Source of the DNA: Lachnospiraceae bacterium
Lineage (GTDB): Bacteria > Bacillota > Clostridia > Lachnospirales > Lachnospiraceae
DNA length: 64,000 nt
Reading direction: 5' to 3'
NCBI GenBank assembly: GCA_045588655.1
Contig: JAZNEP010000007.1
Location: 3,260 to 67,259 of the forward strand
Every line of letters starts with the position of its first letter. Position 1 is the first letter of the stretch. Positions 12,207-63,660 of the stretch are shown one piece after another. A program made the position numbers and the translations under genes. The notes under the pieces were generated by a model. The model was not told the origin of the DNA. It ran no database searches and worked only from the letters and a program-made list of their open reading frames with translations.

Positions 12207-12319
12207 GCGTGCTCCTTTAGTCTATAAACATTTATTCAAAAAATTTTACCTTATAAATTGATACCATGTCAAGAAAACGTACATACTAAACATTAGGAAA
12301 AATGAAAGGAAGGTTACGG

Positions 12320-13747
12320 ATGGAAAAGCTTTTTAACCTAAAAGAAAATGGGACAAGTGTAAAAACCGAAATTCTAGCAGGATTTACCACGTTTATGACC
12401 TTGGCTTATATTCTTGCACTGAATCCAAATTTGCTGACCGGATTTGGAGCGAACGGCGGTCAATCTCTTTGGAATGCAGTATTTTTATCTACTTGTATTG
12501 CGTCAGCTATTGCCATGTTTGCCATGGCTTTTTTGGCAAACAAACCATTTGCGCTGGCACCGGGTATGGGACTGAATAGTTTTTTTGCTATTGTTACATC
12601 CAATATAGCCTCTATTACTGGTCTGACTTATCTTGACGCATATCAGGCAGCTTTGACAATTATTTTAGTAGAAGGTCTTGTTTTTGTTGTATTGTCTTTG
12701 TCGAATGTGCGGGAAAAGATTGTGAATGCAATTCCACTAGGGATTCGTTTTGGAATTGCTCCGGGAATTGGTATGATGCTTTTAAATATAGGTCTTGGAT
12801 CTAATGCAGGAGTTTATAATGCAGAAGGTGATGTTTTTTATGTGTTACGCGATTTTTTAGGAAATCTGACCCCTTCTATTACTCAAAAAGCAATGCAAGA
12901 CTCCTATCCGAAGATGATACTGACAGTAATAACTATGTTTATCGGTTTTTTTGCGATGATCATTTTGTCTGTAAAAAAGGTACGTGCCTGTGTTTTTTAT
13001 GGTATGTTTATCTCATGTATCATATATTGGATAGGTGAAATTTGGTTTCTTGGTATAAATCCGTTTGCATCTCTTAACACAGCATCATTTATTCCACCTG
13101 TTCAAGATTTAGTCGAAACCACATTGTTTCAATTTGATATAAAAAGTTTTATTTCCATCGGATGGTTTACAGTTATTACTCTCATTCTTACATTTTGTGT
13201 GATTGATATGTTTGATTCTATCGGCGTATTTGTTGGAACTGCACAAAGAGCCGGATTGCTGGATGAAAATGGAAAAATGCCAAAAATGAAAGAAGCTCTT
13301 TTATCGGATGCGATTGGAACTTTGGCAGGTGCATGTACCGGAACTTCAACAGTCACCACATATGTAGAATCAGCCGCTGGTGTGGAAGTTGGCGGAAAAA
13401 CCGGTTTAACTGCACTTACAACCGCAGTATTGTTTCTTGCTTCCGCATTTCTGGCTCCAATCGCAGCAATCATTCCTGCTCCGGCAACATCTGCTGCATT
13501 AATCTATGTAGGAGTTCTGATGCTTGGCGTATTAAGTAAAATTGATTTTCAGGATATTACCCAGATGGTTCCTGTTACTTTGATGCTGATTGTGATCCCA
13601 ATTTCCGGATCAATCGGACATGGTATCGGTATTGCGCTCATCAGTTACTCTGTTTTATGTTTTTTTACAGGACATGCAAAGAAAGTTTCACTATTAACCT
13701 ATGTGATATCACTGATTTTCCTGATTAAATTTTTTCTTGTTGTGTAA
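12320..13747 (+). CDS. NCS2-family purine permease (AzgA/PbuG-like guanine-hypoxanthine permease)
   Basis: MEKLFNLKENGTSVKTEILAGFTTFMTLAYILALNP..., about 12 TM segments. Start at the ATG with AAGGAAGG SD. Confidence 0.85.
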   Translation: MEKLFNLKENGTSVKTEILAGFTTFMTLAYILALNPNLLTGFGANGGQSLWNAVFLSTCIASAIAMFAMAFLANKPFALAPGMGLNSFFAIVTSNIASITGLTYLDAYQAALTIILVEGLVFVVLSLSNVREKIVNAIPLGIRFGIAPGIGMMLLNIGLGSNAGVYNAEGDVFYVLRDFLGNLTPSITQKAMQDSYPKMILTVITMFIGFFAMIILSVKKVRACVFYGMFISCIIYWIGEIWFLGINPFASLNTASFIPPVQDLVETTLFQFDIKSFISIGWFTVITLILTFCVIDMFDSIGVFVGTAQRAGLLDENGKMPKMKEALLSDAIGTLAGACTGTSTVTTYVESAAGVEVGGKTGLTALTTAVLFLASAFLAPIAAIIPAPATSAALIYVGVLMLGVLSKIDFQDITQMVPVTLMLIVIPISGSIGHGIGIALISYSVLCFFTGHAKKVSLLTYVISLIFLIKFFLVV

Positions 13748-13777
13748 TTCAAGAACGAAAGGAGCTGTTGCTCCACA

Positions 13778-13803
13778 GATGAATGAGTCATCTATTTTGC
13801 AAC
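13778..13803 (+). terminator. putative hairpin terminator after the permease gene
   Basis: AGATGA atgag TCATCT followed by ATTTTG; additional GGAGC tgtt GCTCC hairpin just upstream. Confidence 0.3.
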
Positions 13804-13813
13804 AGCCCCTTTC

Positions 13814-15004
13814 TTATGAACATACGTCTCTTTTTCTATTCTTTTTTTGTTCTTTATCCTGATACATACGTAAATCTGCTTCGTTTAATAAGTCTTGTAA
13901 CTTATATCCCTTTTCTGCATATATCATACCGACTGCTATTTCACAACAGATGTTGTCATCAAGTGTATTTAGTCGGTCAAGTTCCTGCTCCCAAGACATT
14001 TTTAATTGATTTATTTGTAGTTGTGTAAAATTACAAGCCACCACTAAAAATTCATCTCCGCCAATACGATAACCATGGACATCCGGTCCTGTTATCTTGC
14101 GAATACTATCTGCAGCTTTGATGATCAACTTATCTCCGGCTTCATGTCCATAAGTATCATTCATTTTTTTTAGGTCATTAACATCAAAGTTAAAAATGGC
14201 AATGGAATCAAGATGGTTATATTCCGTTTCCAACATCAACATATATTTTCTTTTATTATACATTCCTGTTAATCTATCGTGTTCACTGTCATAGACCAGT
14301 TTTTCACGCATCATACCATTTTCGATGTATAATCGAATCACACTAAGAAGTGTTTCTTCAGAGATGGATTCTCGATCCATTTTTTCATTTTCTGTATAAT
14401 ATAGTGCATAGTCTTGATCCGATATTGTACCTTTACAAAGTAGACCAAGCAAAGTGTCCGTAATAGGTTCCTTGCTGTAGGCCTGTGTGGCTTTATTGTA
14501 AGTAACAATGCGTTCGCTATTTTCATATTTTATTTTAAGCATCACTTTGTCTATTTTAAATAGATCTGCAAGAATCGGAAGCAATTCATGATAGGAACCT
14601 TGTAGTTTCTCAAGAATTGCAGTCTGAAACTTAGATAGCTTTTTGAAAAAAGACATATATTTGCTGACGTCACGATTTAAAGTCATATACTCCGTAATAT
14701 CCGTCAGATGATGAATCTGATAAAGATGCCCGTCTTTTTCAAATAGTCCCGATACCACTTTGAAATATAATCTGTTTTCATGATCGATGGTTTCCCATTC
14801 AATTGGCATATCAAGACTGAGCGTTGGACATTCCTCCAACCATACAAGAATATCTTTTTTGGTTTCACCGGTCAGATCACGATGGTATATTTTTTGAAAA
14901 AAGAAATCTGCATATGCAATTTTATTATGCTCCATATCAATTATGACAATTCCACCGCCGATATCATTTGTCATAAATCCGGCAATATGCTTTTTAAAAG
15001 CCAT
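13814..15004 (-). CDS. GGDEF diguanylate cyclase with N-terminal PAS-like sensory region
   Basis: GGDEF domain with intact RIGGDEFLVV motif. Track ORF starts on a TTG at 15025; the in-frame ATG (MAFKK...) with an AAGAAGG SD is preferred. Confidence 0.85.
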   Translation of the reverse strand: MAFKKHIAGFMTNDIGGGIVIIDMEHNKIAYADFFFQKIYHRDLTGETKKDILVWLEECPTLSLDMPIEWETIDHENRLYFKVVSGLFEKDGHLYQIHHLTDITEYMTLNRDVSKYMSFFKKLSKFQTAILEKLQGSYHELLPILADLFKIDKVMLKIKYENSERIVTYNKATQAYSKEPITDTLLGLLCKGTISDQDYALYYTENEKMDRESISEETLLSVIRLYIENGMMREKLVYDSEHDRLTGMYNKRKYMLMLETEYNHLDSIAIFNFDVNDLKKMNDTYGHEAGDKLIIKAADSIRKITGPDVHGYRIGGDEFLVVACNFTQLQINQLKMSWEQELDRLNTLDDNICCEIAVGMIYAEKGYKLQDLLNEADLRMYQDKEQKKNRKRDVCS

Positions 15005-15017
15005 ATCCATCACCTTC

Positions 15018-15320
15018 TTATTCAATCGTTAGAATGTCGGAAAAACCAGTCATCTCAAACACTTCCATAACTGTTTCGTTGACATGTGTTACAACCATGG
15101 TTCCTTGCTTACGATTCATGGTTTTTTGTGCTAATAGAATAACACGAAGTCCTGAACTTGCAACATAATGACAATTTGCCATATCAATAATCAGTTCTTT
15201 GATATCCTCGGAAAGCTCTCCTTCAAGTATGCCTGAGAGCTCATTCGCAGCCATAGTATCAAGACGTCCGTTTAAAAGAATCCATTTTTTATTTGCTTCA
15301 TTTTTTATATCAATATTCAC
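15018..15320 (-). CDS. STAS-domain anti-sigma-factor antagonist (SpoIIAA/RsbV-like)
   Basis: 100 aa; ...MANCHYVASSGLRVIL... with the conserved phosphorylatable serine context. GTG start preceded by GGAGG SD. Confidence 0.85.
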   Translation of the reverse strand: MNIDIKNEANKKWILLNGRLDTMAANELSGILEGELSEDIKELIIDMANCHYVASSGLRVILLAQKTMNRKQGTMVVTHVNETVMEVFEMTGFSDILTIE

Positions 15321-15336
15321 AATGATTCCTCCAACT

Positions 15337-15768
15337 TTACCATGTTTTGGAAAGTGTTAATCTGTTTTTTTTATCCGTATAATCATACTCTACAGTATCC
15401 ATATTATTTTTTACCATAAAAATACCAAGTCCACCAATTTCTCTATCTTCTGCAGAAAGTGAGATATCCGGATTTTCATTGGATAAAGGATTAAAAGGGG
15501 CTCCATAATCCGATATACACACCGTCGCCTTGCCACCTTTCGAATGGGTAGCTGTCTCTGTGACGAGATGAACTGTGCATTCACCGGACTTCAAGGGATA
15601 TGCATAATTTGCAATATTAATAAAAATTTCTTCTACGGACACACAAATTTGTGCAACTGTTTTTTTCGGGCAAGCACACTCGCTTAGTTTTTCTTCAATA
15701 AACTCAAGTAGTTTATGCAGTTGTGAGACATCTGCTCTAAGTACAAGCTGACTGTTATTTTGTTTCAT
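15337..15768 (-). CDS. RsbW/SpoIIAB-like anti-sigma serine kinase (HATPase_c)
   Basis: 143 aa; GHKL ATPase motifs (...EIGGLGIFMV...); classic size for partner-switching kinases. Confidence 0.8.
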   Translation of the reverse strand: MKQNNSQLVLRADVSQLHKLLEFIEEKLSECACPKKTVAQICVSVEEIFINIANYAYPLKSGECTVHLVTETATHSKGGKATVCISDYGAPFNPLSNENPDISLSAEDREIGGLGIFMVKNNMDTVEYDYTDKKNRLTLSKTW

Positions 15769-15777
15769 AAAAACCCC

Positions 15778-16557
15778 TTATAAATCACTTAAAAACTGTA
15801 AAGAACGTTTTAACTCTTCAAGTCCTCTTACTTCTACCAGAACACTTGTATCTGAAAAATGTGTGTTATAAATCTTTTTGAAATAGTTCCAATCAATTTT
15901 TCCCTCCCCAATAGGCAGGTGAAGATCCTGTAAAAAATCATTATCATTAATATGGATATGCTTTACATACGGAGCAAATGCGCTAATCCAATCATCAATC
16001 CTCGCCGGATCTCCAAATGCATGTGCATGTCCATAATCGAAACAAATGCCAAAATTAGAATAAACAGAAAGATTTTTAGCCAGTTGTTCCAATAATTCAT
16101 AGGACATATCAAACATATTCTCAATATAGATATTTAACTCATTATATTTAGAAAGTTTTTCTTTCCAATATACAGTATTTCGTTCCAACCATGATTGACA
16201 ATAACTTTCCGAATGAAAATTTGCAATAAAATTTGTATGAAAAACAATAGCGGATGCTCCGAGTTGTTTTGCAATCAACAGACTTTGTTCGACTCGTTTA
16301 TCTGAAACCATATAAATTTGCGGATCATCCGATGCTACATTTATATCAAAAAAGGCGCCGTGCATCATTCGATAGGCCGGTAAATCATTATGTATCATAT
16401 AAGACTGCACAATCTCCTGACATGCCTTATCATCTTCCAAAAGCGTAGGAACATAAAAATCATTGTATTCAAATCCACAATGATATGTTTGCGCCAGCAA
16501 AATACTTTGCTCTATTTGATTGTGTTCCGGAATCATCAGCAATTTCTCTATTTTCAT
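15778..16557 (-). CDS. sugar phosphate isomerase/epimerase (xylose-isomerase-like TIM barrel)
   Basis: 259 aa; ...AIVFHTNF...ICFDYGHAHAF... metal-binding pattern of AP-endonuclease-2/TIM barrel family. ATGA overlap with the upstream phosphatase gene. Confidence 0.7.
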   Translation of the reverse strand: MKIEKLLMIPEHNQIEQSILLAQTYHCGFEYNDFYVPTLLEDDKACQEIVQSYMIHNDLPAYRMMHGAFFDINVASDDPQIYMVSDKRVEQSLLIAKQLGASAIVFHTNFIANFHSESYCQSWLERNTVYWKEKLSKYNELNIYIENMFDMSYELLEQLAKNLSVYSNFGICFDYGHAHAFGDPARIDDWISAFAPYVKHIHINDNDFLQDLHLPIGEGKIDWNYFKKIYNTHFSDTSVLVEVRGLEELKRSLQFLSDL

Positions 16558-17669
16558 TTCTCTTTCCGACTCAGGCAGAGCATGGTGATATCGTCTACCT
16601 GACTTACCCCTTCTGCAAATTGATCGACACTATCATAAATCTTTTTAAGAAACAAATCAGATTTGTCAATATGACTTATGTTTTCATTGAGTGCTTTCAT
16701 CAATCGCTGTTCACTAAACAGTTCTTCCCTTTTGTTGATAGCTTCTGTTACACCATCCGTGTATAAATACAGAACATCTCCGGAGTCCAACCGGATGCTC
16801 TGCTGTTGATACGTAATATCTTCCATCATTCCGAACACAAGGTTTGCTTTCATCTGCATACGTTCAAAGAGCCCGTCTTTCTTCATTAAGTACGGCGGCG
16901 TGTGACCTGCATTCACGTAGGTAAGTACACTGGTATTTAAATCAAGAACACATAGAAATGCAGTAACAAACATTCCTTCGTCATTTTTGTAGCACAACTG
17001 ATTATTTACCCGATACGCCACTTCATCTAAAGCCAAACCTAAGGAGGCATAATTTTTTATATGTATTTTGGCCATGCTCATAAAAAGCGCAGCCGGAATA
17101 CCTTTGCCGGATACATCTGCAACAAGAAAACACAGATGTGACTCATCGATCAAAAAAATATCATAAAAGTCTCCGCCAACCTCTTTAGCTGGTCTTACAT
17201 TGGCCATTACATAAATATCTTTTAGTGCATGAAATGGTGAGAAATCTTTTTCCAGACAGCCAACCTGAATTTTGGTGGCAACAGCCAGTTCTGATTTTAT
17301 ACGTTCCTGTTCCCTTATCAGTGTGGCTGTTTTTTGGTACAGCATATTCATAAATGTACCGTAGACGCTCCTGTTTTTTTCTGCAATGGAAAAAAACTCT
17401 TCTTTGGAAATGTTGGAACAGATCACAGAACATAGGGCTCGCACTGTTGCACCACGTTTATCATCATTAATTAAACCAAGCTCACCGATAATGTCACCTT
17501 CACCCAGAAGATTTACTCGCTCATTTCTGTCATTTAATACTTCTGCCTGTCCTTGTTGAATGATGTACATTCCATCTTCGGAATCGGCTCCCAGTGTCAC
17601 AATATTTTCCCCTTTAGTAAAACGTACCTCACGCACCGTTGAAAATTCTTTAAAATGTTCTATATTCAT
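16554..17669 (-). CDS. PP2C-type serine phosphatase (SpoIIE/RsbU family) with N-terminal cyclic-nucleotide-binding domain
   Basis: N-terminal cNMP-binding-like fold (GDIIGELGLI...RGATVRA); C-terminal PP2C motifs GGDFYD, DVSGKG, YTDGVTEA. Confidence 0.85.
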   Translation of the reverse strand: MNIEHFKEFSTVREVRFTKGENIVTLGADSEDGMYIIQQGQAEVLNDRNERVNLLGEGDIIGELGLINDDKRGATVRALCSVICSNISKEEFFSIAEKNRSVYGTFMNMLYQKTATLIREQERIKSELAVATKIQVGCLEKDFSPFHALKDIYVMANVRPAKEVGGDFYDIFLIDESHLCFLVADVSGKGIPAALFMSMAKIHIKNYASLGLALDEVAYRVNNQLCYKNDEGMFVTAFLCVLDLNTSVLTYVNAGHTPPYLMKKDGLFERMQMKANLVFGMMEDITYQQQSIRLDSGDVLYLYTDGVTEAINKREELFSEQRLMKALNENISHIDKSDLFLKKIYDSVDQFAEGVSQVDDITMLCLSRKEK

Positions 17670-17786
17670 CCGATATCCTCACCATATATGTGTGACATTT
17701 TATTACTATATTTTACCTTACGCAGGAATATACTGTCAACTTATCGAACATAGTAAAACACGTAGAAAATATGTATAGAAAAAACG

Positions 17787-17822
17787 CATAAAAAAACGTC
17801 AGTGAAATATAATCACTGACGT
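17787..17822 (-). terminator. rho-independent terminator downstream of yajC
   Basis: ACGTCAGTGA aatataa TCACTGACGT perfect 10-bp stem, followed on the minus strand by a T-run. Confidence 0.65.
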
Positions 17823-17842
17823 TATAATTTACCGATATTACA

Positions 17843-21540: not shown

Positions 21541-24039
21541 CTATAGCATTTGAGTGACTTCATCAATCGTACATTGATAAAGTTTCATAAGCTCATCATG
21601 CTGTGCTTTCACAAAAGCTAATTTTTCACTATTATTGTCGGCAAAATATTCTTTGCCGACTTTCTCTATCTTAGCTGCAAAATCTGAAAGTTTAACGGCT
21701 CCTATATTTAAGGATGCAGACTTTAAGGAATGTACATGAGTGATATAGTTTTTCCAGTTCTCCCCATCATAATTTTCGTTTAATTGCTGAACTTTATTTT
21801 TATATCCGTCACAATATATCTCCAGAAATTCATGATACATTTCTTCGTTGTGTCCACAATATACATAACCAACTTTTCTATCTAAGAATACTCCGATATC
21901 TTCACAGGTTTGGTCTTTCAACACCATGGAATTTTCTACACCTTTTGTAACATTTGCAACAGAAATTTTGTGTGACGGAAGATATTGCACAAGCATCTGT
22001 TCTAACTGTGTTATCTCGATCGGTTTACTGAGGTAATCATCAAATCCATTATTTAAATAGAGTTCTTTTGCTCCCGAAATGGCATTGGCAGTCAAAGCAA
22101 TTACTATCGTCTTTTTCTTCAAATCCATTTCAATCATTTTCTTTAGAGTCTCAATTCCATCCATCTCCGGCATCATATGATCAAGCAAAACAATGTCATA
22201 GTTATTTTGAGACATATATTTCAGACAATCTTCTCCGCTTACACAAGTTGTAACCTTCGCCTTGGTAGACTTCAAGAGACTTGACATAACAAAAAGGTTC
22301 ATATCATAGTCATCCACAACTAAAATTTCAGCGTTTGGAGCTATAAAGCTTTCAACATATGATTCTGTTAAATAAGCTGATTGAGTTGCTTTGAAATCAC
22401 CGATTTCTTGCGCATTAATAACCTGTTGTGGTATATAAACCGTAAATGTTGAACCTTCACCATATGTACTTTCTACCTCAATGCGACCATTCATACACTC
22501 AATTAATCGGTGTGTAATGGCAAGACCCAATCCGCTTCCTTCAATGCTTCGATTTTTTTTAATATCCAGTCTTTGAAAATTTATAAATAGCTTCTTTAAG
22601 TCTTCTTCTTTGATTCCTACTCCCGTATCAGTTACCTTAATGATCAAGGTTGTCATTTTATCAGAACGCTGCTCCTGTGTGACAGAGAATGAAATCTTTC
22701 CTTTTTCTGTATACTTTACTGCATTGTTAAGAATGTTAATCATAATCTGACGAATGCGAACGCTATCTCCGGATAACACACTTGGTAAGTTCTTATCGAT
22801 GTCTGTGTGAAAGGATAAACTTTTTTCTTTTACAGAATACAGAATCATATTAACAATATCATTCAGCAATCGGTCTAATTGATAATGCTCACTCACTACT
22901 TCAATTTTTCCTGCTTCAATCTTAGAAAAATCAAGAATATCATTAATTAAAGCTAATAAACTGGAGCTTGCATTTTTTATATTTTGAGAATAAGATTTAA
23001 TTTCACTATCCGTGCACTCACGCAATACCATTTCATTCATACCAATAATTGCATGAAGAGGGGTACGTATTTCGTGGGACATATTTGCCAAAAACGCACT
23101 CTTGGCGTGATTTGCATGTTCTGCTTCCTCTTTTGCAATACGTAATTCTTCGCTTTCCTGTGCCTTTTCTGCTGTAATAAAGAGATAAACACCTACAATA
23201 ATAAAAAGAATTAAAAGCAAACCAAATACCCATAAAACAAGTGTTGTAATATACATAACCCCTTCGGAAACCGCATCTTCCGGTACAATTCCTACCACGT
23301 ACATTCCATATTGTGATAACTCTGAAACCATCAGAAAATAATTGTTCTCTTTGCATTCTATGTAAGTACTGGCTGCTGTTGCTATAGTCATTTTGTTTCG
23401 AATAATAGCAAAAGAATCCTGAAGCTCTGTTTTCTGCCAAAATTCCTCACTATAGATATCTTCTATAAATGGTACGATGATTTCATGGTCTGCACTAGCC
23501 CAAAGAATCTGTCCTTGTCCATTATAACAGTCTAATCCAAATGTATTTTTTATAACCGCTTCATCATATAGCTTGTAGAGAACATACTTTACATTATCCC
23601 CATTGTATATCGGTACAGAAAACATCATACCCATATCTTTTCGATATGAAACCGCCTCATTTCCACGAAAAGAATCACGAATACCTTCAAATTCATTTAA
23701 TACAATAGGATTACCTGATATAATCTCTCCATCCAGTGCCACTATACCCCCGGAAATACCCTCTTGCTCCTGCATCACCGTTTGTAGTACCTGGTCCATC
23801 ATCTCACTGTTATTCTGAACTGCATTTGCGATATTTTTTAATTGTATAAATTGTATCATGATACTTTGCTCCACATGTTCTGCTAACATGTTTGCTTGTT
23901 CCGTCAACTGATTTTCAATATTATCGGTTAACATTTGGTTCATTTTATAACCAAGCATGGAACCAACAACCAGCATGATAACTAGCAGAAGGGTTATACC
24001 AAGTATCGTATGAGTACTTAATATTTTTCTATTTTTCAT
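21541..24039 (-). CDS. hybrid sensor histidine kinase / response regulator with C-terminal Hpt domain and periplasmic Cache-like sensor
   Basis: Two TM segments flanking an extracytoplasmic domain; HisKA H-box ANMSHEIRTPLHAIIGM; HATPase; REC (VVDDYDMN...LLDHMMPEMDG); Hpt (HSLKSAS). Confidence 0.9.
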   Translation of the reverse strand: MKNRKILSTHTILGITLLLVIMLVVGSMLGYKMNQMLTDNIENQLTEQANMLAEHVEQSIMIQFIQLKNIANAVQNNSEMMDQVLQTVMQEQEGISGGIVALDGEIISGNPIVLNEFEGIRDSFRGNEAVSYRKDMGMMFSVPIYNGDNVKYVLYKLYDEAVIKNTFGLDCYNGQGQILWASADHEIIVPFIEDIYSEEFWQKTELQDSFAIIRNKMTIATAASTYIECKENNYFLMVSELSQYGMYVVGIVPEDAVSEGVMYITTLVLWVFGLLLILFIIVGVYLFITAEKAQESEELRIAKEEAEHANHAKSAFLANMSHEIRTPLHAIIGMNEMVLRECTDSEIKSYSQNIKNASSSLLALINDILDFSKIEAGKIEVVSEHYQLDRLLNDIVNMILYSVKEKSLSFHTDIDKNLPSVLSGDSVRIRQIMINILNNAVKYTEKGKISFSVTQEQRSDKMTTLIIKVTDTGVGIKEEDLKKLFINFQRLDIKKNRSIEGSGLGLAITHRLIECMNGRIEVESTYGEGSTFTVYIPQQVINAQEIGDFKATQSAYLTESYVESFIAPNAEILVVDDYDMNLFVMSSLLKSTKAKVTTCVSGEDCLKYMSQNNYDIVLLDHMMPEMDGIETLKKMIEMDLKKKTIVIALTANAISGAKELYLNNGFDDYLSKPIEITQLEQMLVQYLPSHKISVANVTKGVENSMVLKDQTCEDIGVFLDRKVGYVYCGHNEEMYHEFLEIYCDGYKNKVQQLNENYDGENWKNYITHVHSLKSASLNIGAVKLSDFAAKIEKVGKEYFADNNSEKLAFVKAQHDELMKLYQCTIDEVTQML

Positions 24040-63411: not shown

Positions 63412-63660
63412 CAAAAAAACGTCCCTGTCTAAATCAGGGACGAATCAATATCCGCGGTACCACCCGTATTCCTTAAAGTTATACACTTCAAGACACTCAA
63501 CGCGCGTAACGTGCGCATACGGCTCTGCCTACTGCTCTTTCAACAAAGCTGCTCCGGTGGGAAATTCAATCCACATCTGAACGTAAGGCGGCTTTCAGCC
63601 GGTGACCACCTCTCTCTGAACGAAAATGTATCTCTACTGACACCTTCATAGCATTTACAA
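63412..63660 (-). ncRNA. T-box riboswitch leader (probable Phe specifier UUC) with terminator/antiterminator
   Basis: Minus strand carries the T-box consensus AGGAATACGGGTGGTACCGCGG, immediately followed by the terminator GTCCCTGATTTAGACAGGGAC TTTTTTTG. Stem-I region has a loop containing CGUUCAG. Confidence 0.7.

Follow-up and report, generated by a model that had tools for sequence, protein, structure and literature searches.

The window analysed here is a 64,000-nucleotide (nt) stretch of a Lachnospiraceae genome (GenBank assembly GCA_045588655.1, contig JAZNEP010000007.1, positions 3,260 to 67,259 of the forward strand; coordinates below count from its first nucleotide). Five minus-strand open reading frames (ORFs), taken from the ORF list and from the junctions read in the sequence, are tightly packed at 13814-17669. 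They encode the three elements of a putative partner switch (phosphatase, kinase, and antagonist), a diguanylate cyclase, and a metal-binding TIM barrel. In order of transcription they are:

16554-17669, minus strand: PP2C phosphatase of the SpoIIE type with a cyclic-nucleotide-binding (cNMP-binding) domain, 371 amino acids (aa), assigned by Pfam
15778-16557, minus strand: endonuclease-IV-like metallo TIM barrel (AP_endonuc_2), 259 aa, assigned by Pfam, NCBIfam, and alignments
15337-15768, minus strand: RsbW/SpoIIAB-type serine kinase, 143 aa, assigned by Pfam HATPase_c_2
15018-15320, minus strand: single-domain STAS protein, 100 aa, with a GTG start after a GGAGG site, assigned by Pfam STAS
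13814-15004, minus strand: GGDEF diguanylate cyclase, 396 aa, with a PAS-like domain, a second PAS/GAF-like domain, and a GGDEF domain

An earlier reading of the window without database searches (the original prediction) placed these five genes in one operon, and the junctions bear this out: the phosphatase and TIM barrel genes share an ATGA overlap, and the gaps that follow measure 9 nt (TIM barrel to kinase), 16 nt (kinase to STAS), and 13 nt (STAS to GGDEF). The last figure uses an ATG at 15004. The ORF as listed runs from a TTG (13814-15025, 403 aa); the ATG is the likelier start, being preceded by a GAAGGTG ribosome-binding site and giving a product equal to the 396-aa public protein P0121.

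The domain assignments of the original prediction (cNMP-binding PP2C, AP_endonuc_2, kinase, STAS, and GGDEF) all score above the curated Pfam cut-offs. The phosphatase matches cNMP_binding at 7e-16 (residues 15-99, profile positions 2-89 of 89) and SpoIIE at 1e-50 (residues 176-368, profile positions 2-191 of 192), and its PP2C motifs GGDFYD, ADVSGKG, TDGVTEA, and DDIT are conserved in alignment with its relatives. The phosphate-binding cassette GELGLINDDKRGATVRA, conserved in all 38 sequences including that of the window, keeps its Glu and Arg, which we assign by comparison with the PKA and CRP cassettes. The kinase (HATPase_c_2, 2e-23) has an N-box (EE..N...YAY) and the motifs D.G..F and IGGLGI, all at least 90% conserved among 38 orthologues; it scores 17-22 bits with RsbW models, against cut-offs of 145-155. 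The antagonist matches STAS at 3e-14 and also passes the NCBIfam model for anti-sigma factor antagonists (TIGR00377, 65.8 bits; cut-off 53.45). Its motif YVASSGLR is invariant among orthologues, and Ser55 aligns, through the DSSGL motif, with the phosphorylated serine of SpoIIAA (Ser58) and RsbV. At the level of sequence, the operon is a partner-switching system made up of phosphatase, kinase, and STAS antagonist; it does not qualify as a sigma-controlling switch of the SigB or SigF type, having no sigma factor gene in or beside it.

The last gene encodes a GGDEF protein (Pfam GGDEF, 2e-26, profile positions 2-161). Its signature is intact (YRIGGDEF), as originally read, and FNFDVN.LK.MND..GHEAGD is invariant or nearly so in 22-31 homologues. 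The RxxD I-site that can lie five residues before this motif is absent (the residues there are GPDV in the window and S/N-x-x-V across the family), so canonical product inhibition is not expected. Pfam detects no PAS domain in the protein at E-values up to 0.01. The AlphaFold model of a 432-aa orthologue (P0122, pLDDT 81.7) shows a PAS-like domain (beta2-helices-beta3, residues 1-102) and, after it, another domain that resembles PAS or GAF. Among PDB structures the model comes nearest to DosP, a phytochrome-linked cyclase, and a GAF-GGDEF protein, with TM-scores kept low by the domain arrangement.

Related loci are common in gut Clostridia. At least 534 matching stretches were found in a scan of one genome per species, mostly in Clostridia of the human and animal gut; 80 loci from this collection were labelled with phmmer, and the neighbourhoods of TIM barrel homologues were added. 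The order of the module is conserved in about 35 species of Lachnospiraceae, where the genes encode a FecR-domain protein, the cNMP-binding PP2C, a CHASE2 protein with a class III cyclase domain, the TIM barrel, the kinase, the STAS protein, and the GGDEF protein (architecture A). The same order recurs in 38 loci, including loci found through the GGDEF protein instead of the TIM barrel. The cyclase catalytic domain of these relatives contains the metal-binding motif FVDIRGFT, the Lys of KFVGDA, and the Thr of DYTAIGDTVN, which we take to be residues of the adenylate cyclase type. In Oscillospiraceae, Ruminococcus, and Ruminiclostridium (architecture B), a GAF-GGDEF gene is instead divergent from genes for the cyclase, the TIM barrel, and a large FecR-domain surface protein, without phosphatase, kinase, or STAS genes; an orthologue of the GAF-GGDEF protein is present in 26 loci. 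A third architecture that links the same three functions is read from one further operon (L089, 1147-6408), in which a TIM-GAF-GGDEF fusion gene is followed by genes for a 310-aa protein with a TIR domain and for a class III cyclase of 825 aa that has no CHASE2 match.

Co-occurrence was counted in the 43 species-level loci whose sequence extends 6 kb or more to either side. The cyclase lies within 6 kb of the TIM barrel in 42 of the 43 and directly upstream of it in 40, often overlapping by 4-8 nt; a FecR-domain gene is present in 41, a GGDEF gene in 36, and the partner switch in 21. By these counts, it is the cyclase, not the partner switch, that the TIM barrel accompanies.

Two further kinds of gene accompany these loci. 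Proteins of 375-383 aa are encoded beside the cyclase/TIM barrel/FecR core in some Oscillospiraceae-type loci (L052, 14940-16067; L069, 3627-4778; L085, 9902-11029). Those of L052 and L069 have cNMP_binding and DUF2225 domains (Pfam), and that of L085 is matched only by phmmer, to the cNMP part; they may represent an alternative receptor for cyclic AMP (cAMP). Directly upstream of the FecR gene, many architecture A loci have a gene for a 580-735-aa protein (L003, 121-1878; L088, 652-2448), which matches Flg_new (Listeria-Bacteroides repeat) in L088 and has no Pfam match in L003. It is absent from the window, and may be a surface component of the sensor.

These comparisons suggest, with a probability of roughly 0.6, that the five genes are a trimmed version of a signalling cassette, widespread in gut Clostridia, that relays a cAMP signal to the synthesis of cyclic di-GMP (c-di-GMP). 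In the complete form, the FecR-domain protein and the membrane-bound CHASE2 adenylate cyclase would produce a cyclic nucleotide. This ligand, probably cAMP, would bind the N-terminal cNMP-binding domain of the phosphatase, and a long helix leading to the SpoIIE domain would then alter phosphatase activity. The RsbW-like kinase is predicted to phosphorylate the STAS protein on Ser55 and the phosphatase to remove the phosphate; the phosphorylation state would decide whether the STAS protein binds the downstream PAS/GAF-GGDEF protein, thereby setting c-di-GMP synthesis. The TIM barrel, as a partner of the cyclase, would hydrolyse a signalling nucleotide, with cAMP as the first candidate.

The window contains neither the FecR gene nor the cyclase, yet it is syntenic with the related locus L001 (tgt, yajC, the module, DUF815, leuB, ilvD). 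In the relatives, the phosphatase ends ...LSRK-stop and the cyclase ends ...VKRE(D/N)(K/V)-stop, overlapping the ATG of the TIM barrel gene; in the window, the phosphatase ends ...LSRK-EK-stop, with the same ATGA overlap with the TIM barrel start. The site of the loss can thus be located:

16554-16565, minus strand: deletion junction, at which the 3' end of the phosphatase gene is fused to the last codons (EK-stop) of the lost CHASE2 cyclase gene, identified by comparison with the gene ends of the relatives

The LSRK-EK-stop ending and the retained overlap indicate that the cyclase gene was excised almost exactly, and the coupling of phosphatase and TIM barrel was therefore inherited from the cyclase/TIM barrel pair and is not a designed link between phosphatase and barrel. 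The translational coupling of an enzyme inside the module, which the original prediction singled out, accordingly exists as an overlap, but its significance belongs to the ancestral gene pair. Loss of the cyclase has occurred independently at least five times, each cyclase-less lineage having a cyclase-bearing nearest relative. In another locus (L087, 3383-6230), the genes at the phosphatase and cyclase positions encode 365 and 541 aa, with no Pfam match on record, compared with the usual 392 and about 600 aa; these may be truncated or degenerating copies.

Several observations weigh against a working cAMP-to-c-di-GMP relay in the window. Its phosphatase lacks 23 aa (QEFF...EGTRLLLEAM) that are present in 37 of 37 relatives and form the helix immediately N-terminal to the beta-barrel in the cNMP-binding domain; we take this N-terminal helical segment to be part of the allosteric relay in domains of the CAP/PKA type. 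Its GGDEF protein lacks 37 aa found in all 120 homologues listed (411-443 aa, most of them 427-434), which in the P0122 model make up exactly the pair of helices linking strands 3 and 4 in the second sensor domain. The two deletions preserve the reading frame and are unique to the window lineage. The module proteins are also 2-3 times more diverged from the sister lineages than these are from each other, which is not the case for the flanking genes:

PP2C phosphatase: window against sister lineages 68-72% identity, sisters mutually 78-88%
GGDEF protein: window against sister lineages 56-59%, sisters mutually 75-87%
STAS protein: window against sister lineages 68-72%, sisters mutually 76-91%
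DUF815 (flank): window against sister lineages 82-92%, sisters mutually 82-94%
LeuB (flank): window against sister lineages 92-95%, sisters mutually 92-98%

The flanks place the window inside the clade (its DUF815 protein is 92% identical to that of L001), and the excess divergence is therefore specific to the module. These relative-rate comparisons of identity were used because the ratio of nonsynonymous to synonymous substitution rates (dN/dS) between the window and L001 is uninformative, dS being saturated or undefined for module and flank genes alike. The window locus may thus be rewired or decaying. Two other points concern the TIM barrel: it has survived in five or more lineages from which the neighbouring cyclase disappeared independently, a mild argument against its exclusive service to that cyclase, and no function is established for TTHB071 and MJ1311, the nearest relatives with solved structures (nothing relevant to the function of TTHB071 was found in the literature).

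Decay would mean that selection on the five remaining genes relaxed once the FecR gene and the cyclase were lost, and that these genes have ceased to make up a working pathway. Three lesions specific to the lineage (the two lost genes, the 23 aa missing from the cNMP-binding domain, and the 37 aa missing from the GGDEF sensor) are consistent with this, as is the excess divergence of phosphatase and GGDEF protein set against DUF815 and LeuB. However, all five ORFs are intact, the ribosome-binding sites and tight spacing are retained, and every catalytic or phospho-acceptor motif checked is preserved, including the GGDEF motif, the N- and G-boxes of the kinase, the ASSGL motif of the STAS protein, the aspartates of the phosphatase, and nine metal ligands of the TIM barrel. 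Independent loss of the cyclase with retention of the remaining five genes is seen in at least four further lineages, which argues that the five-gene form is viable. We regard a decaying remnant as unlikely and retain the reading of a reduced relay, in which the loss of FecR and cyclase together with the sensor deletions implies that the switch would either answer a cyclase encoded elsewhere or run independently of cyclic nucleotides. The input that the original prediction described as cross-talk between second messengers is upheld at the level of the family, in which most relatives encode a cyclase in the same operon; with cyclase, FecR gene, and a segment of the cNMP-binding domain all lost, the window locus is where cyclic-nucleotide gating is least secure.

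The output of the switch appears to be the diguanylate cyclase. No sigma factor gene is present in the operon or its immediate flanks, as the original prediction had it for the operon. In a Pfam scan of flank ORFs from 34 related loci (the 102 of 147 that are 480 aa or shorter), no sigma family is among the 25 commonest, and any sigma family occurs in at most 3 of the 102. The gene order thus recurs in about 35 Lachnospiraceae species without a conserved sigma factor nearby, and STAS and GGDEF genes are adjacent in every complete locus, so the GGDEF protein is the likely output, again as first proposed. Since the cyclase/TIM barrel/FecR core is joined directly to a GAF-GGDEF protein in architecture B, a diguanylate cyclase would moreover be a recurrent output. 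Most likely, then, the phosphatase/kinase/antagonist switch controls a c-di-GMP synthase. The same flank scan matched a T2SSE-family ATPase (PilT/PilB-type, about 348 aa) in 15 of the 102 ORFs, counted as 15 of the 34 architecture A loci, and ORFs of this size lie directly 3' of the GGDEF gene in many of loci L012-L037 (for example L018, 12931-13980). This hints at a pilus-related (type IV pilus) output in the relatives; the window has no T2SSE ATPase gene.

Alternatively, the switch could act on a partner from outside the locus, for instance a sigma factor bound by the RsbW-like kinase, and the GGDEF gene would be no more than co-transcribed. The weak match of the kinase to RsbW and the passing score of the STAS protein with the anti-sigma-factor-antagonist model fit such an arrangement, and the search for sigma factors covered gene neighbourhoods only; one locus (L087) encodes a 640-aa protein with Sigma70_r2 and Sigma70_r4 domains 3.4 kb downstream of the GGDEF gene. 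Against it stand the rarity of sigma families in the flanks, the constant adjacency of STAS and GGDEF genes, RsbW scores far under the cut-offs, and the association of the cyclase/TIM barrel core with GAF-GGDEF proteins where the switch is absent, including fusions of the barrel to such proteins. A remote target is accordingly improbable, and control of the adjacent diguanylate cyclase remains the preferred reading.

The TIM barrel matches AP_endonuc_2 at 9e-25. The original prediction took it for a metabolic sugar-phosphate isomerase; this label is a generic superfamily name and is not borne out in detail, the protein having the metal site of endonuclease IV and a cyclase as its usual neighbour. 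Nine residues (H66, H107, E146, D174, H177, H202, D211, H213, and E242) are invariant in 18 homologues of 49-62% identity, and correspond to the endonuclease IV ligands H69, H109, E145, D179, H182, H216, D229, H231, and E261. Eight were aligned directly to E. coli Nfo (identical in sequence to 1qtw), and H66 was placed through alignments to MJ1311 and to the endonuclease IV of M. tuberculosis. Within the AP_endonuc_2 superfamily, sugar isomerases and epimerases typically use only a four-ligand E-D-H-E subset of this site, as a single or binuclear centre. A published comparison of ligands is consistent with that division (PMC7733943), and the same work describes CbiR, a member of the superfamily that acts as a small-molecule phosphodiesterase (PMC7733943). 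The best NCBIfam matches of the barrel are CbiR and deoxyribonuclease IV (Nfo), both phosphodiesterases, with no isomerase model listed; all are far below cut-off (18-44 bits with Nfo models against 130-376; about 44 bits with Nfo and CbiR against 105-376). The nearest structural matches to the AlphaFold model of the barrel (pLDDT 92.7) are TTHB071, MJ1311, and endonuclease IV; epimerases rank lower.

The family is large and uniform, with at least 955 homologues, nearly all of 258-260 aa. An exhaustive profile search gave 205 family clusters at E <= 1e-30, and the exact nine-residue pattern is present in 90 of 120 full-length representatives. Natural fusions join the barrel to GAF-GGDEF (605 and 592 aa), to GAF (449 aa), and to GAF-HD/HD_5 (763-774 aa), the last of which we read as a GAF-HD-GYP-type partner; all keep the nine ligands. 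The ligands, together with the nucleotide-signalling neighbours and fusion partners, therefore indicate a signalling enzyme and not a metabolic passenger. Our best inference is an active-looking candidate phosphodiesterase, with cAMP as the first candidate substrate. In one Lachnospiraceae genome, that of Clostridium sp. CAG:510 (L036, 10001-11203), barrel and RsbW-like kinase are encoded in frame by one 400-aa ORF. Either the genes are truly fused, which would hint that the two proteins associate physically, or the stop codon between them was lost to a sequencing error.

The substrate of the barrel could instead be the output messenger, as c-di-GMP or pGpG, in place of the cyclase product. 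No Metallophos, EAL, or HD-GYP gene is found in the Pfam listings obtained for these loci or among the 25 commonest flank families, so far as c-di-GMP is concerned in keeping with a role for the barrel in removing it; the barrel is also kept where the cyclase is lost and the GGDEF gene remains, and is fused to GAF-GGDEF proteins. But 7 of the 43 loci have cyclase and barrel without a GGDEF gene within 6 kb, and only 1 has a GGDEF gene without the cyclase; fusion to HD/HD_5 would duplicate a c-di-GMP-degrading activity, and the overlap coupling is with the cyclase gene. Action on the output messenger is improbable.

A sugar or sugar-phosphate isomerase/epimerase, tying carbohydrate metabolism or the supply of exopolysaccharide precursors to the switch or serving as a metabolite sensor, is suggested by AP_endonuc_2 membership, by public annotations of homologues as "sugar phosphate isomerase/epimerase," and by structural matches that include UlaE, ketose 3-epimerases, and MJ1311 (deposited as "D-tagatose 3-epimerase-like"), but is very doubtful in view of the five extra ligands that separate the three-metal endonuclease IV site from the four-ligand site (all present and invariant), the NCBIfam matches, and constant neighbours and fusion partners that are nucleotide-signalling proteins, not sugar genes. 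A DNA-repair role as endonuclease IV was rejected (low model scores; a signalling context in 42 of 43 loci), and a role in anti-phage defence was set aside, there being no defence-type architecture.

With a nucleotide-directed enzyme preferred for the barrel, a wider possibility can be stated tentatively. The family may be an unrecognised class of cyclic-nucleotide phosphodiesterases that end the cAMP signal of CHASE2 adenylate cyclases in gut Clostridia and, with either the cNMP-binding PP2C, kinase, and STAS protein or a GAF domain, form a cAMP-to-c-di-GMP relay in hundreds of Lachnospiraceae and Oscillospiraceae species; we consider this less likely than not.

Signals at both ends of the module suggest how it is delimited:

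17795-17823, minus strand: intrinsic-terminator-like hairpin (11-bp stem, 5 G-C pairs, T-run) that would end the upstream yajC transcript and isolate the operon
17710-17739, minus strand: sigma-70-type promoter-like site (TTGACA-18 nt-TAAAAT; 11 of 12 consensus matches), about 40 nt 5' of the phosphatase start
13761-13805, minus strand: terminator-like hairpin 3' of the GGDEF gene, facing a convergent permease gene

The promoter-like site is a consensus match only, such sites being no more numerous in the region than expected by chance. The inner stem of the 3' hairpin (13774-13761) comes from a scan, and the longer GGGGCTGTTGC/GCAACAGCTCC stem was read from the sequence. Bracketed by the promoter-like site and the terminators, the five genes read as a real operon.

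The immediate flanks encode YajC, Tgt, a permease, and the DUF815 protein. The permease-like gene (12302-13747, plus strand, 481 aa) converges on the GGDEF gene and is missing from the otherwise syntenic L001, where DUF815 comes straight after the GGDEF gene; it thus appears to be an insertion or rearrangement at the 3' end of the operon. An 832-aa ORF 4 kb away (21541-24039, minus strand) has a histidine-kinase H-box (SHEIRTPL) and apparent C-terminal receiver and Hpt-like regions, and is probably a hybrid sensor kinase, as read from its translation. An Rfam scan of the whole window found no c-di-GMP riboswitch; the sole family above its gathering score is a T-box leader (63433-63658, minus strand; RF00230, 106 bits, full-length match).

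To our knowledge, the only diguanylate cyclases known to be governed by partner switches belong to three systems of proteobacteria, and very little cAMP signalling has been described in Firmicutes; in gut Clostridia we know of essentially none. In these Clostridia, c-di-GMP governs pili, motility, and attachment. An incomplete literature search, which is not proof of absence, found no account of this cassette, of a cNMP-binding PP2C feeding a GGDEF protein, or of an endonuclease-IV-like cyclic-nucleotide phosphodiesterase, and nothing relevant on links between cAMP and c-di-GMP in Lachnospiraceae; a Leptospira precedent for the combination of cNMP-binding domain, PP2C, and antagonist was dropped, the paper offering only a list of domain abbreviations. 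If our reading is correct, the operon represents a Firmicute partner switch with a second messenger as its input, in a two-step cascade from cAMP through phosphatase and STAS protein to c-di-GMP. The comparative data define a compact cassette of FecR-domain protein, CHASE2 adenylate cyclase, endonuclease-IV-like TIM barrel, cNMP sensor, and GGDEF protein. The barrel, which should be easy to purify and is a candidate new class of nucleotide-hydrolysing enzyme, is the element that could prove new in kind, and natural cyclase-less variants such as the window offer ready-made genetic comparisons.

The input side of the cassette resembles clusters in Campylobacterota that comprise a CHASE2 adenylate cyclase, a cAMP phosphodiesterase, and FecR-domain and TPR proteins (PMC9239204). 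Like the core found in 41-42 of the 43 clostridial loci, they combine a class III cyclase of the CHASE2 kind with a FecR-domain protein and an enzyme for nucleotide breakdown, a position that in the clostridial loci is taken by the endonuclease-IV-like TIM barrel, a candidate for that activity. In Clostridia this layout is extended by a cNMP sensor and a GGDEF output; the window lacks the cyclase and the FecR gene. The barrel itself shares its fold and the H-H-E-D-H-H-D-H-E ligand set with Nfo, CbiR, TTHB071, and MJ1311, at only 17-24% identity; it is shorter than Nfo (259 compared with 285 aa), and its context is nucleotide signalling, not DNA repair or cobamide metabolism.

On the output side, the original prediction named HsbA-HsbD of Pseudomonas as the precedent. 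HsbR unites response regulator, PP2C, and kinase in one protein that receives its signal from the HptB phosphorelay, and HsbA has FlgM as an additional, anti-sigma target. In HsbR-HsbA-HsbD (P. aeruginosa) and BgrSTUWV-BgrR (Sinorhizobium meliloti), a canonical STAS antagonist modulates a GGDEF protein according to its phosphorylation state (PMC8457831). Wiring of this kind has precedent; the window departs from these systems in dividing phosphatase and kinase between two proteins, in taking its input through a cNMP-binding domain, and in having no phosphorelay gene in the operon. SiaABCD of Pseudomonas aeruginosa is the closer analogue in organisation: PP2C SiaA, kinase SiaB, STAS-like SiaC, and diguanylate cyclase SiaD are encoded by four separate genes in the same order, without a sigma factor.

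Control of GGDEF enzymes by partner switches has been shown experimentally for SiaABCD, HsbA-HsbD, and BgrV-BgrR (PMC8457831). The phosphorylation state of SiaC controls SiaD through direct binding to the helical stalk before the GGDEF domain (PMC8457831; PMC7647112), with unphosphorylated SiaC binding the stalk helix (PMC8457831). The P0122 model likewise has a long helix before its GGDEF domain. The two systems are not orthologous: scores with the NCBIfam models are 32.7 bits for SiaA (cut-off 700) and 69.8 for SiaD (cut-off 290), SiaC is a DUF1987 protein whereas the window antagonist is a canonical Pfam STAS/STAS_2 protein, and SiaA has a membrane/HAMP input where the window phosphatase has a cNMP-binding domain. 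The window differs further in the two PAS/GAF-like sensor domains of its GGDEF protein, its extra TIM barrel, and its Firmicute host, and its relatives add the cyclase and FecR protein. Judged by its genes, the window system would work like SiaABCD without being a member of that family.

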